Under the pieces are notes generated by a model, which saw only the letters and a program-made list of their open reading frames with translations, made no database searches and had not been told where the DNA came from. A program made the translations under genes and the position numbers. This document shows, one piece after another, positions 43,106 through 50,364 of a stretch of 64,000 nt of DNA. Position 1 is the first letter of the stretch. Each line of letters starts with the position of its first letter. This stretch comes from Sulfuricurvum sp. (lineage in GTDB: Bacteria; Campylobacterota; Campylobacteria; Campylobacterales; Sulfurimonadaceae). The stretch spans positions 9,050 through 73,049 of the forward strand of contig JBAZTZ010000009.1 in the NCBI GenBank assembly GCA_041661705.1. Direction: 5' to 3'.

Positions 43106-43705
43106 TCATTTTATTGCTGTAACAACGAAAATAGGATAGGTTCCATTTTCTCGCACCACCTGATACGCCTCGTGAAAACGGACGTTTTGGAAACCAATTT
43201 CTTCCAAAGTTTTGCGCAGCGTGTCCCGATTAAAACCAAAATGGTGCACCCCTTCGTTTCCGTGAGTATGAAACGATCCGTCTTCCTCTTCCAAATCAGC
43301 AATAGCAATAAAACCATCTTTTTTTAAGTGCGCATAAAATTCGCGGAATAAATGCGCTGTATCTTCAACATGGTGAATTGCCATCGAGCTGACAATACCG
43401 TTAAATTCGTACCCTATTGAAGAGGAAAGAATATCGTGATACAGTGCTTCAACGCTTAATTCCTCCGTATTTTTTGCTTCCAGTTGCTCCAACATTTTTT
43501 CAGAAAGATCCACGCCGACGACGGAACCTACCATCGGAGCAATTTTAAAACTCAACAGCCCCGTCCCTGCTCCAAAATCCATAATTTTCATGCTCGGTTG
43601 TAAGGCTATTCGACTCACGATGGTTTGAAAGACAGCGTCCGCAATGTTTTGACGAATATCCCCTTTATCCCATCCTGCTGCAGCTGTATTAAAACGTTCG
43701 CTCAT
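43106..43705 (-). CDS. Class I SAM-dependent methyltransferase
   Basis: MDFGAGTG motif I, GVDLSEKML, SSMAIHHV, GFIAIADL. Confidence 0.92.
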   Translation of the reverse strand: MSERFNTAAAGWDKGDIRQNIADAVFQTIVSRIALQPSMKIMDFGAGTGLLSFKIAPMVGSVVGVDLSEKMLEQLEAKNTEELSVEALYHDILSSSIGYEFNGIVSSMAIHHVEDTAHLFREFYAHLKKDGFIAIADLEEEDGSFHTHGNEGVHHFGFNRDTLRKTLEEIGFQNVRFHEAYQVVRENGTYPIFVVTAIK

Positions 43706-43821
43706 ATTGACTCGCTCCTTGAAAATTCTTCTTTGACGACACCATCGTCTATGCGCAGTATTCTATCCAACAAAGGTAACATCTGTCGCCCTTTATGAGT
43801 AATTTATAAGAGAAAATAATG

Positions 43822-43827
43822 TATAAT
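43822..43827 (+). promoter_or_regulatory. Candidate -10 box (TATAAT) for pgaBCD
   Basis: Exact TATAAT 33 bp upstream of the pgaB ATG in a very AT-rich stretch. Confidence 0.45.
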
Positions 43828-43860
43828 ATTCCTTAAATTTTAAAATAAAGTGCTCTAATT

Positions 43861-45894
43861 ATGATTAAATCAAGAAGAATAAAAAGTGGATATAAAATAC
43901 TCAAACTCGTAGTAGCATTCATAGCAATTACAAGTAATTACCTTATGGCAAATGACTTACCCAATGTCTGTAGTCGGGATCAAAATCCCAATGAATTTAC
44001 AATTCTGAGCTATCATGAAATAGCCAATAAAAGTGAGACATTGGATTCAACGTATGCGGTGACCCCAGCGAACTTTGATCAACAGATGCAGTGGCTAATA
44101 GATAATGGGTATCACTTTGTTGGTATAAATGATATTTTAAAGTATCGCAAAAGTGCAAAACCATTGCCAAATAAAGCAGTTCTAATTACCTTTGATGATG
44201 GGTATGAATCTGTTTATACGAATGCTTATCCTGTTTTGAAAAAATACAAAATTCCAACTGTCATTGCGCTCGTTGGGAATTGGATGAAAGCCAAAGATAA
44301 GGTCGATTTCGATGGACATCTGATTGATCGTAACAAATTTTTGAGTCAAGCTCAGATCAAGGAGATGGTCAGTAGCGGTCTTGTAGAAATTGCCAGCCAC
44401 AGCTGTGCTATGCACAAAGGTATCCCCGGAAATCCTCAAGGCAGTATGGAGCCCGCTCTTACCACTCGCCAATGGCTTGCTGATAAAAAAGGGTATGAGG
44501 ATGAAAAAACATATCAACAGCGAGTTTACAATGATCTATTGGAAAATAATACTTTTTTGAAACGCTATACAGGGCAACAACCCCGTGTCATGGTGTGGCC
44601 GTATGGACGTTATAATATTGAGGTTCGTAAAATTGCAGAGCGGTTAGGAATGAGTATCGGATTAACATTGGACGATGGTAGCAATACACGCACTACACCT
44701 TTATGGGGGGCTCGACGTATATTAGTAGAGGGTCAAATGACTCTTCAGGATTTGGATTTTCTTATGCGAATGCGAAGTGGTAATTTCACCGATGATGCGA
44801 GGACAACCAAAGCAGCTCATATCGACTTAGATTATATTTATGATCAAGATCCAGTCCAGCAGGAAAAAAATATCGGATTACTCCTTGATCGCCTCAAAAA
44901 ATTGGGGGTTAATACCGTTTATTTACAAGCTTTTGCTGACCCTGATGCCAATGGCGCAGCGGATTATGTCTATTTTCCAAACCGAAATATACCAATGCGT
45001 TCAAATCTCTTTAACCGAGTTTCATGGCAAATTGCCAAATGTACGCAGGTCAAGCGTGTTTATGCGTGGATGCCAATGCTTGCTTGGGAATTACCACAAA
45101 GCAATATGGCTTCCAAAGAGACGGTAGTGACATTGCAAGTTGATCCGACTCATCTTAATATGGGGTATCCAAGATTATCCCCTTTTTCACCCAAAGCTCG
45201 AAAAATTATTAAAGAAATTTATGAAGATTTGTCAAAATCAGCCTATATTGACGGAATCTTGTTTCATGACGATATAACACTGTCAGATTTTGAAGATGAC
45301 AGTACATTTGCGCATACTCAATATAAAAAGTGGGGATTGCCAGAAGATGTTATTAAAATCAGAACGGATCGAAAACAATTTAATAAATGGACTAAACTAA
45401 AAACACGTTATTTAGATGATTTTGCGATGGAATTAGCTCAAATTGTAAGAGATGAACAACCAGGACTCAAAACAGCCCGTAATTTATATGCACAAGTTGC
45501 TTTAAATAAGGATTCAGAAGAGTGGTATGCGCAAAGTTTGCAGGAATCAATAAAAAATTATGATTACACCGCAATTATGGCAATGCCGTATATGGAACAA
45601 GCTGGTGATCCAGAGCACTTTTTAGGTGAAATAGTTAAACATGTCAAACAAGAACAATGTGGGCTTGAACGTACCGTAATCGAGTTACAAACAGTAAATT
45701 GGAGAGAAAACAATGAACCGATTTCTTCCAAAGAATTGGATAGTACCATACGATATTTATATGGCTTAGGTGTTCATCACATTGCATATTATCCCGACAG
45801 TGTGTTTACCAATAATCCTGATGCCAATATGATGAATGAAGCGTTTACTCAAAAACCAGTGCGTATGCATCTGAATACCATCTTTAATAAATAA
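43861..45894 (+). CDS. pgaB: PNAG N-deacetylase/glycoside hydrolase PgaB (CE4 + GH153)
   Basis: LSYHEI, ITFDDGY, IASHS..MH, VWPYG, HIDLDYIYD, VYLQAFADPD, GILFHDD, KTARN, IMAMPYME, ELQTVNW. Confidence 0.95.
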   Translation: MIKSRRIKSGYKILKLVVAFIAITSNYLMANDLPNVCSRDQNPNEFTILSYHEIANKSETLDSTYAVTPANFDQQMQWLIDNGYHFVGINDILKYRKSAKPLPNKAVLITFDDGYESVYTNAYPVLKKYKIPTVIALVGNWMKAKDKVDFDGHLIDRNKFLSQAQIKEMVSSGLVEIASHSCAMHKGIPGNPQGSMEPALTTRQWLADKKGYEDEKTYQQRVYNDLLENNTFLKRYTGQQPRVMVWPYGRYNIEVRKIAERLGMSIGLTLDDGSNTRTTPLWGARRILVEGQMTLQDLDFLMRMRSGNFTDDARTTKAAHIDLDYIYDQDPVQQEKNIGLLLDRLKKLGVNTVYLQAFADPDANGAADYVYFPNRNIPMRSNLFNRVSWQIAKCTQVKRVYAWMPMLAWELPQSNMASKETVVTLQVDPTHLNMGYPRLSPFSPKARKIIKEIYEDLSKSAYIDGILFHDDITLSDFEDDSTFAHTQYKKWGLPEDVIKIRTDRKQFNKWTKLKTRYLDDFAMELAQIVRDEQPGLKTARNLYAQVALNKDSEEWYAQSLQESIKNYDYTAIMAMPYMEQAGDPEHFLGEIVKHVKQEQCGLERTVIELQTVNWRENNEPISSKELDSTIRYLYGLGVHHIAYYPDSVFTNNPDANMMNEAFTQKPVRMHLNTIFNK

Positions 45895-45903
45895 GAAGAA
45901 TCA

Positions 45904-47196
45904 ATGACGACTTTCACTATATTTTTGCATTTAGTATGGCATACACTCTTAGGTTTTATATTTTATTATCCACTTTTTATGTCAAGCTTGTGGATAGTAG
46001 GAGCGATCTTTTTTTATTTCAAAAATGAAAAGCCATATTCTAAATATACTATTCCACCCCTTAGAGGCAATGAACGTTGGGAGGGAGTTAGTATTTTAAT
46101 CCCTTGTTACAATGAAGGGCAAAATGCTATCGAAACCATTTCGTATGCGCTTAATGTTGACTACCCTGAATTTGAAGTCATTGCCATTAACGATGGTAGT
46201 AGTGACGATACACTGGAAATATTGGTCAATTTAGCAAAAAACAACCCTAATTTAAAAGTCGTTAATTTAGCTGAAAATCAGGGCAAAGCTTTGGGTCTTC
46301 AAGCTGGCGCATTATTGGCAAAGTATGAATACTTAGTATGTATTGATGGAGATGCCTTAATCGATAAAAATTGTGTTCATTGGATGGTAAAACATTTTAT
46401 CCGCTACCCCGAAGTTGCTGCCGTTACAGGGAATCCACGGATACGAAATCGCACGACGTTATTAGGGAAAATTCAAGTAGGTGAGTTTTCTTCTATCGTT
46501 GGTATGATTAAACGGGCACAGCGTAGTTTTGGACGGATATTTACTGTATCAGGGGTAATTACAGGATTTAGAAAAGCTGCGGTACACGAAGTGGGCTATT
46601 GGAGCCCCGATATGCTGACGGAAGATATTGATATTACTTGGAAGTTACAAAGCAACGGATGGGATGTTCGGTTTGAGCCTCGTGCTTTGGTATGGATATT
46701 GATGCCTGAAACATTGAGCGGACTATGGAAACAGCGTTTACGTTGGGCTATGGGTGGCGTTCAAGTAATGCTTAAAAATTTCAAAGTTTTATTTATGCCT
46801 AGACAAACGCATCTTTGGGGATTAATGGTTGAACTTATGTTAAGTACTCTATGGGCGTATAGTATGGTATTAGTATTTTTAGTCTGGTTTATTAGTCTAT
46901 TTGTTCCTCTTGGGTATTTAACGCCCGATCATTCCCCTATTCTCCCAGATCAAAGTAGTATTATTTTAATCGGTGCGTGTTTGGTGCAGTTTGGTGTTAG
47001 TAAATGGTTGGATGGTCACTATGATCAAGGTTTGGGAAAAAATTATTTTTGGATGATTTGGTATCCATTTGCTTATTGGTTGCTTAATTTATTTACCGCT
47101 GTAACCGCTCTTCCTAAGGTATTATTCGGTAAAAAAGGTCGTGCACGATGGGTTAGCCCTGACCGTGGTGCGCATCAAGAGATCAAAAAAGGTTAA
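45904..47196 (+). CDS. pgaC: PNAG synthase PgaC (GT2)
   Basis: IPCYNE, NDGSSD, DGD, TGNPRIRNR, TED, QRLRW, RARWVSPDRG and terminal TM helices. Confidence 0.96.
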   Translation: MTTFTIFLHLVWHTLLGFIFYYPLFMSSLWIVGAIFFYFKNEKPYSKYTIPPLRGNERWEGVSILIPCYNEGQNAIETISYALNVDYPEFEVIAINDGSSDDTLEILVNLAKNNPNLKVVNLAENQGKALGLQAGALLAKYEYLVCIDGDALIDKNCVHWMVKHFIRYPEVAAVTGNPRIRNRTTLLGKIQVGEFSSIVGMIKRAQRSFGRIFTVSGVITGFRKAAVHEVGYWSPDMLTEDIDITWKLQSNGWDVRFEPRALVWILMPETLSGLWKQRLRWAMGGVQVMLKNFKVLFMPRQTHLWGLMVELMLSTLWAYSMVLVFLVWFISLFVPLGYLTPDHSPILPDQSSIILIGACLVQFGVSKWLDGHYDQGLGKNYFWMIWYPFAYWLLNLFTAVTALPKVLFGKKGRARWVSPDRGAHQEIKKG

Positions 47197-47200
47197 GAAA

Positions 47201-47629
47201 ATGGAAACATTGATTATTAATAAACGCCGTGAGCTACCTAAAGCCAAACGGATAATTTGGGACATAATAACTATTTTACTCTGGTTAGGATTTTTCTATT
47301 TATGGAAACCTGTATTTCATGTATTTTATCGAATCATTACATTAGGTGCACCCGTAGAAGAGTTGTCCGATTGGATTTTTGGCGAAATTCACAGCGTCAC
47401 TTTCGAGAATGCACTCTATACGTTAATTGCAACGCCTATTGTATTATTTGTCTTGTCAAGACTAAATAGACACCAAGCCCCAAGTGAACATTTAATTTAT
47501 CATTCAACCGATTATTCAAATCATTTTAATGTCGACGATGCTCAATTGCAGCAGTGCGTAAGTAGCCAATTAATTACGGTTTACTTTGATGACCATGGGC
47601 ATATCATACGCCTAGAGAATCAAATCTAA
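47201..47629 (+). CDS. pgaD: PNAG biosynthesis protein PgaD
   Basis: Small two-TM protein directly after pgaC, with the C-terminal V.FDDHG.I pattern. Start placed at ATG 47201. Confidence 0.8.
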   Translation: METLIINKRRELPKAKRIIWDIITILLWLGFFYLWKPVFHVFYRIITLGAPVEELSDWIFGEIHSVTFENALYTLIATPIVLFVLSRLNRHQAPSEHLIYHSTDYSNHFNVDDAQLQQCVSSQLITVYFDDHGHIIRLENQI

Positions 47630-47640
47630 GGGAATACTAG

Positions 47641-50364
47641 TTACTTCAACTCACCCCAGTGATTCCCTATATTCATCGAAGTTTTTAGGGGAATACCTAA
47701 CATCATAATTCCCTCCATTAGCTCTACAAAACGGTTTGCATATTCTTCGGCAACCTCTTCATCGACTTCAAAAATAAGTTCATCATGGATTTGAAGAAGC
47801 ATTCGCACCCGTAGCCCTTCATTACGAATAACCGCATCAATTTTATTCATAGAGAGTTTAATAAGATCGGCAGCAGAACCTTGAAAAACGGCATTAACGG
47901 CTTCGCGCTCGTAAGCGGCTTTGAGCATAGGAGTAGCAGTTGCAAAATCAAAATAGCGTCGTCGGTGTAACAATGTCTCCACGTAACCTAACTCTTTGGC
48001 TTGCTCCACAATACGGCTAAAATATCCCTTGACACTTGGAAAGGTTTCGAAATAGCGCTCCATAATTGCTTTAGCTTCTTTCGTCGTGATTCCCAAGGTA
48101 TCGGAGAGTTTTTTCTGTCCCATACCGTAAAGGAGTCCAAAATTGACCGTTTTGGCAATACCACGCTTGAAGGGGGCTTCTGCCTCACCAAAAAGGGCTA
48201 TCGCCGTTTGTAAGTGAATATCACGCCCTTCATTAAAGGCGTTGACCAAGAGGGTATCTTGGCTGAAATGAGCAAGAAGTCGAAGTTCTATTTGCGAGTA
48301 GTCGATCCCAATCAGTTTTTTACCCACAGGAGCAACAAAAGCTTCTCGTATGCGCATCCCTAACGCTGTTTTTACAGGAATATTTTGGAGATTAGGATTT
48401 TTGGAGCTGAGTCTCCCCGTTGCCGTCCCCGTTTGGACAAAAGAGGTATAAATACGGGAATGATTATCCGCTTTTGACAATAAAATTAAAGGCTCAATAT
48501 AAGTCGAATAGAGCTTATGATATTCACGATATTGAAGGAGCATCGGGATAATCGCGTGCTCATTTTTCAACCCCTCTAGTACGGATTCATCGGTACTATA
48601 CCCTGTTTTTGTCTTTTTACCGTGGGGCAATCCCAATGTTTCAAATAATATCACCCCTAACTGTTTGGGGGAGTTGAGATTAAAGACGGTTCCAGCTACA
48701 GTATGGATATTTTCAGTAAGGGTTGTAAGCTCGTGTGCCACTTCTGTTTTAAATATCTCAAGAACATTGATGTCGATAGCAATCCCAGCGCGTTCCATCC
48801 CAAGCAAGGTGAGGAGAAAAGGAAACTCGACAGTATACGCTTCATCCAGTGCCTCCTGCCCTCCCTTAAGGAAAAGTTGTTCTCGTAATACTTCATAGAG
48901 TCGATAGGTGATATACGCATCTTCTCCTGCATACTTACACGCATCTTCAATGGCGACGGAACTGAAATTCTCCCCTTTTTTGACCGTATCTTTGAAATGG
49001 ATCATTTCATGATTGAGAAGAGTTTGACTAAGGCTATCCATTGCTAAGGAACGGTTAGAATCCCCAAGCCATGCAATGATGATAGTATCGGCGTAAATAG
49101 TGAGCGATTCAACCTCCAAAAATCGAGTAACGAAATGGAGATCAAATTTAAGATTATGCCCAATAACGCGGTAGTTAAAAATCTCACGTATCGCCTTACG
49201 TGCCACATCAGGAGAAACTTGTTCCCCAACTCCTAAATAATTATGCCCCATCGGAACATAGTACCCCGTTTTTCCATCCAAACTAAAACTAAATCCAACC
49301 AAGGTATCGGTATGAGGATTAAGCCCTGTTGTTTCGGTATCAAAGGCGATCAAGGAATCTTTTGGAATAGAGGAGAGAAGTGTTTCCAGTGCCGTATCTG
49401 TGTCGATAAGAAGTGTGCACCCTTGCGAACTCTCACATTTTGGTGTCTCAACCATCGTTATGACAGACGGAGCTTGCACAGGTTGTGACTCTTCAAAAAG
49501 TGCTCTTGCCTTGATAGTCCGCAATACTGCATTCATCTCATAATGAAGAAGCTCATCATAAATAGGGGCAAACGGATCATCAAAGTGCATTTTATACCCA
49601 TCGAAATCAAGAGTTTCAAAAACATCCCGATGAAGCTTTACCAGTTCACGAGAACGAAACGCATCATCACGGTACGTTTCCAAAAGTCCACGTATCCGAG
49701 GCGGTGTCACTTCATCCAGACGTTCATACATAGCATCCAGTGTTACGAACTGCTTTAAAAGCTTCTCTGCCGTTACTTTTCCGATTCCCTTAACACCGGG
49801 GACGTTATCCGCTGTATCCCCGATCAAGGATTGATAGTCAATAAACTGATACGGGTGTACTCCGTATTTTTCAAAACAGTGGGTCTCATTGAGAACTTTT
49901 TTCGTCATAGCATCAACGAGAACAACAACATCATCTTCAATGAGTTGATACAAATCCTTATCATGCGAAACAATTCGAACCAAAAAGCCTTTTTCTTTGG
50001 CATGTTTTACTACCGAAGCAATCATATCATCGGCTTCATATCCGCTCATCAATAGCGATTTATATCCCATTTTTTCAATCCAGCTGATTGCAATAGGAAG
50101 TTGTTTTATTAGCTCTTCGGGTGCTGGTTGACGATTAGCTTTATAGTTCGGGTCAATTTCAGCACGAAAACTAGGGCCTTTGGCATCAAGGGCGAAAATG
50201 AGATAATCACTGCTATGATCTTTGTGCAATGAGGCGATAAAATTAATAAAGCCTGTTAACAAACCTGTCGGAAAGCCATGCTTATTTTTAAGAGGTGGAA
50301 GCGCATAAAAACTGCGAAAAAAGAATCCAAATGTATCAATGATAGTAACTGTTTGTTGTGACAT
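47641..50364 (-). CDS. polA: DNA polymerase I
   Basis: 5'-3' exonuclease (YKANR, EADD, GDTADNVPGVKGIG), FDTETTG, TGRLSSKNPNLQNIP, DYSQIELR, AKTVNFG, QIHDEL. Confidence 0.99.
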   Translation of the reverse strand: MSQQTVTIIDTFGFFFRSFYALPPLKNKHGFPTGLLTGFINFIASLHKDHSSDYLIFALDAKGPSFRAEIDPNYKANRQPAPEELIKQLPIAISWIEKMGYKSLLMSGYEADDMIASVVKHAKEKGFLVRIVSHDKDLYQLIEDDVVVLVDAMTKKVLNETHCFEKYGVHPYQFIDYQSLIGDTADNVPGVKGIGKVTAEKLLKQFVTLDAMYERLDEVTPPRIRGLLETYRDDAFRSRELVKLHRDVFETLDFDGYKMHFDDPFAPIYDELLHYEMNAVLRTIKARALFEESQPVQAPSVITMVETPKCESSQGCTLLIDTDTALETLLSSIPKDSLIAFDTETTGLNPHTDTLVGFSFSLDGKTGYYVPMGHNYLGVGEQVSPDVARKAIREIFNYRVIGHNLKFDLHFVTRFLEVESLTIYADTIIIAWLGDSNRSLAMDSLSQTLLNHEMIHFKDTVKKGENFSSVAIEDACKYAGEDAYITYRLYEVLREQLFLKGGQEALDEAYTVEFPFLLTLLGMERAGIAIDINVLEIFKTEVAHELTTLTENIHTVAGTVFNLNSPKQLGVILFETLGLPHGKKTKTGYSTDESVLEGLKNEHAIIPMLLQYREYHKLYSTYIEPLILLSKADNHSRIYTSFVQTGTATGRLSSKNPNLQNIPVKTALGMRIREAFVAPVGKKLIGIDYSQIELRLLAHFSQDTLLVNAFNEGRDIHLQTAIALFGEAEAPFKRGIAKTVNFGLLYGMGQKKLSDTLGITTKEAKAIMERYFETFPSVKGYFSRIVEQAKELGYVETLLHRRRYFDFATATPMLKAAYEREAVNAVFQGSAADLIKLSMNKIDAVIRNEGLRVRMLLQIHDELIFEVDEEVAEEYANRFVELMEGIMMLGIPLKTSMNIGNHWGELK

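Follow-up and report, generated by a model that had tools for sequence, protein, structure and literature searches.

A pgaBCD cassette without PgaA in a Sulfuricurvum genome: a conserved lineage that may export poly-N-acetylglucosamine by another route

Known PNAG systems and the Sulfuricurvum cassette

In the accepted model of poly-N-acetylglucosamine (PNAG) secretion by Gram-negative bacteria, the porin PgaA is indispensable. The present analysis concerns a pgaB-pgaC-pgaD cassette that lies without pgaA in a stretch of 64,000 nucleotides (the window), corresponding to positions 9050-73049 of contig C9 of a metagenome-assembled genome (MAG; 2.50 Mb, 53 contigs, 99.8% complete; G000 in the following). 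The nearest pgaBCD loci carry the label Sulfuricurvum (Sulfurimonadaceae, Campylobacterota), and the metagenomes that hold the sequence come from groundwater and lake water. We read the cassette as intact, kept up by selection and belonging to a distinct pgaBCD lineage that is both inherited and moved in the absence of pgaA, and whose PNAG would be exported by a route other than PgaA; the odds of this reading as a whole are about even (probability roughly 0.5). The three genes are arranged as follows.

43861..45894, + strand: pgaB, 677 amino acids (TIGR03938; Pfam Polysacc_deac_1 and GHL13)
45904..47196, + strand: pgaC, 430 amino acids (TIGR03937)
47201..47629, + strand: pgaD, 142 amino acids from the ATG at 47201, with an alternative GTG at 47141 (TIGR03940; Pfam PgaD)

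The pgaABCD operon of Escherichia coli, known as hmsHFRS in Yersinia and bpsABCD in Bordetella, has the same PgaB, PgaC and PgaD families as the window, with the same domain order, catalytic residues and B-C-D gene order. The window genome differs in having no PgaA porin, the identities to the E. coli proteins are 36% (PgaB) and 52% (PgaC), and the two belong to separate clades.

A closer relative is found in Acinetobacter baumannii, which carries, besides its canonical pga operon (A1S_2159-2162), a second, ‘pga-like’ one, A1S_0938-0940 (PMC4256060, PMC9935895, PMC10117892). The latter consists of pgaB-pgaC-pgaD, with pgaA absent from the operon. Its PgaB, AbPgaB1, is expressed and deacetylates PNAG in vitro, and its loss lowers biofilm formation (PMC9935895). 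AbPgaB1 is 54.5% identical to the PgaB of the window and falls inside the same lineage, next to Alkanindiges, with the same gene layout; unlike G000, however, A. baumannii can supply PgaA in trans from its canonical operon. A survey termed this second operon a partial duplication (PMC7112194). The two A. baumannii PgaB proteins are only 32% identical to each other which, together with the tree described below, shows that it represents a separate old lineage rather than a recent duplication.

The pga-derived loci of the Thauera type (Bundalovic-Torma 2020, PMC7112194) are likewise Gram-negative and PNAG-like, with no detectable pgaA, and pose the question of export in the same way. They lack PgaD and the hydrolase domain of PgaB, and feature an icaB-like deacetylase fused to the glycosyltransferase as well as duplicated synthases; this is in contrast with the window lineage, in which PgaB is full-length with both domains and PgaD is present. 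The staphylococcal icaADBC operon also combines a PNAG synthase, a small partner and a deacetylase with no outer-membrane porin, but it belongs to monoderm cells and encodes a short IcaB without a hydrolase domain, plus IcaC. The host of the window is diderm, and its PgaB reaches only 85 bits against the IcaB model TIGR03933. Our literature search found no paper on this lineage standing alone in PgaA-less genomes, nor on PNAG in Sulfuricurvum.

Three intact proteins under purifying selection

The first-pass annotation of the window had described pgaB, pgaC and pgaD as intact, and profile searches agree: the three forward-strand open reading frames (ORFs) all score above the NCBIfam equivalog cut-offs, with 808.6 bits for PgaB (TIGR03938; cut-off 321.9), 597.6 bits for PgaC (TIGR03937; cut-off 422.3) and 119.8 bits for PgaD (TIGR03940; cut-off 31.45), the last also matching Pfam PgaD at 106.8 bits.

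The product of pgaB is predicted to be a periplasmic PNAG N-deacetylase of carbohydrate esterase family 4 (CE4) joined to a beta-1,6 glycoside hydrolase domain (GHL13/GH153). As in other Pga systems, both domains are present with their catalytic residues. H55, D114, D115, H184 and H189 of E. coli PgaB correspond to H52, D112, D113, H180 and H185 in the window, and the acidic residues of the hydrolase domain (D466/467) to D470/471. A signal peptide (...NYLMA/ND) is present, whereas the lipobox that anchors E. coli PgaB to the outer membrane is missing; the window's PgaB is expected to be soluble. In the subclade formed by Campylobacterota and Betaproteobacteria, a conserved motif opens mature PgaB, N(D/E)xPNxCSRDxN, which contains a single cysteine and is not a lipobox. 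It is seen at window positions 43861-43990 and in the PgaB N-termini of loci L003-L048, and is missing from the gammaproteobacterial members of the lineage and from E. coli.

PgaC is predicted to be the processive, inner-membrane PNAG synthase of glycosyltransferase family 2 (GT2). The D,D,D,QxxRW pattern of such synthases is complete (DGSSD, DGD, TED and QRLRW). R207 of the window's PgaC aligns with R222 of the E. coli protein, a residue reported in Steiner 2013 to play a part in the activation of PgaCD by cyclic di-GMP (c-di-GMP). A sequence search for a solved PgaCD structure returned none, the best match being BcsA.

PgaD, the small membrane co-subunit expected of a Pga system, most likely starts at the ATG at 47201, 4 nt past the end of pgaC, the GTG at 47141 being the less likely start. 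The profile match opens at residue 23-24 of the longer form. One segment scores as a transmembrane helix (residues 18-36), while a second candidate at about 71-86 stays under the threshold.

A motif search of the genome returned 27 ORFs with RxGG(D/E)EF in a GGDEF-like context, so c-di-GMP, the activator of PgaCD in E. coli, should be available. PgaCD may respond to c-di-GMP here too. The product would be partly de-N-acetylated poly-beta-1,6-GlcNAc, as suggested by orthology and by the activity of AbPgaB1 on PNAG (PMC9935895).

The ratio of nonsynonymous to synonymous substitution rates (dN/dS), calculated against three relatives, is 0.08-0.10 for pgaB, 0.03-0.05 for pgaC and 0.06-0.09 for pgaD, compared with 0.053 for the neighbouring polA. 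The cassette is maintained by purifying selection of a strength similar to that on polA. Given these ratios and the intact catalytic residues, the proposal that the cassette is a partial remnant, one of those offered in the first-pass annotation, is rejected.

PgaA is absent from the locus, the genome and the family's other carriers of the lineage

The cassette is bounded by the following features, both genes lying outside it.

43106..43705, - strand: class I S-adenosylmethionine-dependent methyltransferase, divergent, left flank (Pfam Methyltransf_25/23/11)
43706..43860, + strand: AT-rich leader of 155 bp, read directly from the sequence
47641..50364, - strand: polA (DNA polymerase I), convergent, right flank, a 907-amino-acid ORF

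The coordinates agree with the earlier description of the flanks, with a 155-bp spacer and a divergent methyltransferase upstream, and 11 bp between the stop codons of pgaD and polA downstream; as was also claimed, this leaves no room for pgaA. Independent metagenomes contain contigs that run across the two junctions of the cassette, showing that its placement is real and not an assembly chimera; the pgaD-polA junction is in addition spanned by diverged strains in two further runs.

A pgaA orthologue elsewhere in the genome would have made the locus simply a split operon. In the whole genome, TIGR03939 finds no PgaA (the best result is a weak tetratricopeptide repeat (TPR) match, E 0.02), PF21197 (PgaA_barrel) has zero matches at E up to 10, and neither tblastn with eight PgaA sequences nor a hidden Markov model (HMM) built from them finds a match in the six-frame translation. 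The same models pick up divergent PgaA proteins in other genomes at 430-525 bits, which indicates that the sensitivity of the search is adequate. Hence the TPR and 16-strand beta-barrel porin characteristic of Pga systems is lacking at the locus as well as in the genome, G000 has no second locus to provide PgaA in trans in the manner of A. baumannii, and the operon is not a split one. It might be argued that pgaA resides in unassembled DNA, since the genome is a MAG of 53 contigs. With a completeness of 99.8%, four kinds of search in agreement, models that do detect divergent PgaAs, and PgaA also absent from 32 further genomes of the family, including assemblies of 2, 5 and 8 contigs, a pgaA that is elsewhere or unassembled is highly improbable.

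Nor is the cassette a peculiarity of one genome, as had first been supposed. Among 151 Sulfurimonadaceae genomes, 33 have the full-length PgaB type (~800 bits), and PgaA scores above the cut-off in none of these 33, several of which are assemblies of 2-10 contigs. The cassette is kept in 24 of 29 sampled congeners, with PgaA in none of the carriers. The canonical arrangement also occurs in the family: seven other Sulfurimonadaceae genomes have a shorter PgaB (~500 bits) with pgaA directly upstream. In a sample of 401 Campylobacterota genomes, PgaB is present in 10, with pgaA adjacent in 3 and PgaA absent from the other 7. Of ten cassette-bearing genomes drawn from several phyla, nine are without PgaA, among them those of two isolates, Fluviicoccus keumensis DSM 105135 and Cognatiluteimonas profundi CHu50b-3-2. 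Lack of PgaA is thus the usual condition throughout a large lineage.

When one genome per species was scanned, 383 PgaB relatives emerged, and the best 80 of the 383 were retained for comparison. Only pgaB, pgaC and pgaD recur across these loci, in this order and with pgaA inside the operon at none, as in the window; the flanks vary. A profile search of the retrieved flanks, which extend to at most 8 kb and are shorter on short contigs, finds no PgaA at 78 of the 80 loci. At the two others, L081 and L082 (Moraxellaceae), pgaA lies convergent to pgaD at a distance of about 2 kb.

In these Moraxellaceae (Alkanindiges illinoisensis and a related MAG) a PgaA of 1045 amino acids precedes a second PgaC-like GT2 of 425 amino acids (L081:13665-16799 and L082:13681-16815, both on the - strand; L089:181-4635), a pair that is convergent to pgaBCD and has no pgaB of its own. 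ORFs of 600-800 amino acids 5' of pgaB at seven loci (L018, L020, L027, L006, L037, L051 and L060) were considered as PgaA and proved to be unrelated housekeeping genes (FtsH-like AAA protease, MnmG, Hsp70-family chaperone, PNPase and CopA). A weak match of 508 amino acids to the PgaA models in G017 and G080 contains TPRs only.

The occurrence of PgaA beside some members raises the question of whether the cassette depends on PgaA and is export-inactive here, being a selfish module, or one stranded recently, that requires PgaA in trans for its function, as in Acinetobacter. The members in A. baumannii and Alkanindiges do coexist with PgaA (PMC9935895, PMC4256060). This explanation is nevertheless improbable, given that in PgaA-less hosts dN/dS stays at 0.03-0.10 across a dS near 1, and given the retention of the cassette by most congeners, all without PgaA.

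In the leader, an extended -10-like element, TGTATAAT, at 43820-43827, 33 nt 5' of the pgaB ATG, is a putative promoter; a consensus promoter scan matches at chance level. No Rfam element or riboswitch was found at the locus.

The outer-membrane step

The proposed pathway is as follows. At high c-di-GMP, PgaC and PgaD would polymerise UDP-GlcNAc to poly-beta-1,6-GlcNAc at the inner membrane and push the polymer into the periplasm, where the soluble, non-lipidated PgaB would partly deacetylate it and could trim it. The polymer would then cross the outer membrane by a route other than PgaA, probably through an unlinked channel supplied by the host; such a channel would allow the three-gene module to work after transfer into new hosts.

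To look for such a channel, the genome was screened for outer-membrane barrels, and several candidates were considered. Its sole TPR and beta-barrel protein is Slam-like (PF04575; C10:73732-75033); it is unlinked to the cassette and, being present in only 4 of the 29 congeners and 19 of the 151 genomes of the family, does not track pgaBCD. The BcsC barrel is absent. An AlgE-family porin (C15:55787-57022) is present but unlinked to the cassette, adjoining nap-like genes, and two Wza-type outer-membrane polysaccharide export proteins each lie in a capsule or Wzy-type polysaccharide locus of their own, also unlinked. A conserved neighbour gene as the exporter was likewise dismissed, as none exists beyond the cassette itself across the 80 loci.

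Several observations weigh against export without PgaA. The barrel screen yielded no substitute exporter, and the outer-membrane step is one that we purely infer. According to the accounts of Itoh 2008 given in PMC9935895 and PMC7112194, PNAG is trapped in the periplasm in E. coli without PgaA. The sole characterised member of the lineage, that of A. baumannii, has PgaA from a second operon, and the two Moraxellaceae loci with a nearby pgaA suggest that the lineage may rely on PgaA where it is available. In addition, none of the RNA runs searched for the cassette sequence holds it.

A serious rival is that the cell makes the polymer without exporting it in long-chain form: the product could be periplasmic or cell-associated, or be cut by PgaB into oligomers, which would exit via general porins or have a periplasmic role. 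Such a fate would fit with the lack of a linked porin of any known synthase-dependent class, with the retained hydrolase residues of PgaB, and with the missing lipobox that in E. coli tethers PgaB to the outer membrane. However, periplasmic build-up in E. coli without PgaA gives no biofilm, so that the long conservation of the cassette would need some other benefit, and no periplasmic role of PNAG is known; moreover AbPgaB1, itself a member of the lineage, has a part in biofilm formation (PMC9935895). On balance we consider a periplasmic or oligomeric product rather unlikely, while taking it seriously.

Returning to export by a non-PgaA route, a large lineage that is under selection and lacks PgaA genome-wide constitutes a natural experiment on the requirement for PgaA. 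Tentatively, and with somewhat less confidence, the reading may extend to dozens to hundreds of diderm species (in Sulfurimonadaceae, Gallionellaceae, Thiobacillaceae, Lysobacterales and Fluviicoccus), which would move PNAG without PgaA through an undiscovered exporter or a generic host route. If this wider reading is correct, the TPR-porin is not universally required for synthase-dependent PNAG secretion, and the cassette is a self-sufficient, transferable biofilm module. F. keumensis DSM 105135 and C. profundi are cultured, non-pathogenic organisms in which the missing export step could be sought. For the sulfur and iron oxidisers of groundwater, the distribution suggests that PNAG is a matrix component which they share and exchange horizontally.

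The Slam-like gene belongs to an apparent four-gene operon outside the window (G000:C10:71363-77879; L097:3364-9880), which encodes a metallo-beta-lactamase-like protein bearing the HD-GYP motif (785 amino acids), the Slam-like barrel (433 amino acids), a secreted protein (283 amino acids) and a membrane protein (661 amino acids) resembling a sensor of the CHASE2 type that ends in or contains a nucleotide cyclase domain. The Pfam scan covered the 433-amino-acid protein, and the other three members were read by eye. The Slam-type barrel sits in what seems to be a signalling context rather than beside a surface lipoprotein.

A further two-gene unit, seen in several Sulfurimonadaceae, comprises a GT2 of 463 amino acids and a fusion of about 1011 amino acids that joins TPRs, a CE4 deacetylase and a PgaA-barrel-like C-terminus (L103:2003-6417, in G141:C4). 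It is not present in G000; similar ORFs occur in G103:C25, G098:C87, G075:C20, G030:C16, G056:C3, G064:C4, G045:C162 and G007:C21.

An old lineage at changing chromosomal sites

Hosts of the lineage include Sulfurimonadaceae, Gallionella, Thiobacillus, Lysobacterales and Moraxellaceae. Its members form one monophyletic clade of 84-85 rows in the PgaB tree (SH-aLRT 100), with the window's PgaB and AbPgaB1 inside it, while E. coli and the canonical Sulfurimonadaceae loci fall outside. The latter are no closer to the window than E. coli is, with identities of 33-37% for PgaB and 48-50% for PgaC. Within the lineage, Gammaproteobacteria branch first, then Burkholderiaceae, then a group of Campylobacterota with Gallionella, Thiobacillus and Methylotenera (SH-aLRT 98). 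The nesting of campylobacterotal PgaB among proteobacterial sequences points to an old transfer, and the lineage appears to have reached the Sulfurimonadaceae from Betaproteobacteria long ago, although the outgroup of the tree is thin, at five sequences.

The chromosomal site has evidently changed since then. The methyltransferase flank is seen at none of the 80 related loci, and none shares the window's flanks as a whole. In congeners pgaB is far from polA, and the polA orthologues, 76-92% identical, do not adjoin pgaBCD. In the sister genome G120, whose PolA is 92% identical, pgaBCD occupies an 8.5-kb insert between genes whose spacing in G000 is 44 bp, while no cassette lies beside its polA, so that the empty sites of the two genomes are reciprocal. 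The cassette was probably relocated between chromosomal sites after its arrival in the family.

Horizontal acquisition, inferred in the first-pass annotation, is upheld by the nested tree and the differing sites in sister species as far as an old event is concerned; a recent acquisition by G000 is another matter. In its favour, the cassette adjoins polA only in G000, and its GC content lies 4 points below that of polA (0.377 against 0.419), in line with the AT-richness that had been noted by eye. This value is, however, unremarkable for the genome (mean 0.399, SD 0.029), at the 17th percentile among windows of the same size. Codon usage is typical in pgaB and pgaC and at the 12th percentile in pgaD, and neither GC nor codon usage of the cassette gives compositional evidence of transfer. 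No flanking repeats, insertion sequence (IS) elements or mobility genes were found beside the cassette. The nearest PgaB, PgaC and PgaD to those of the window are those of G120, the nearest relative, and L003, and the dS of the cassette against the nearest relative is similar to that of polA, as would fit vertical descent followed by relocation. With ordinary composition and a dS like that of polA, a recent arrival is unlikely, and we see little chance of it.

The insert in G120 (L094:2041-5518) also encodes a PpiC-type peptidyl-prolyl isomerase and a FIST-PAS-PAS-HD (HD_5) sensor, a possible c-di-GMP phosphodiesterase. A gene for a peptidyl-prolyl isomerase, of the FKBP type, likewise precedes pgaB in A. 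baumannii (L108:5315-5656). G141 contains a solitary second pgaB of the lineage (L105:1857-6108, in G141:C2), 79% identical to that of the window and unaccompanied by pgaC or pgaD. Its position is about 1.5 kb 3' of an IS21 IstB gene and just ahead of a DUF218 gene.

Comparison of the window at about 51267-66177 with L093 of G120 shows about 15 kb between the HDOD gene and the next gene common to both. Synteny with G120 also ends at the 3' end of polA. Taken together, these two differences mark the surroundings of the cassette as a hotspot of rearrangement.

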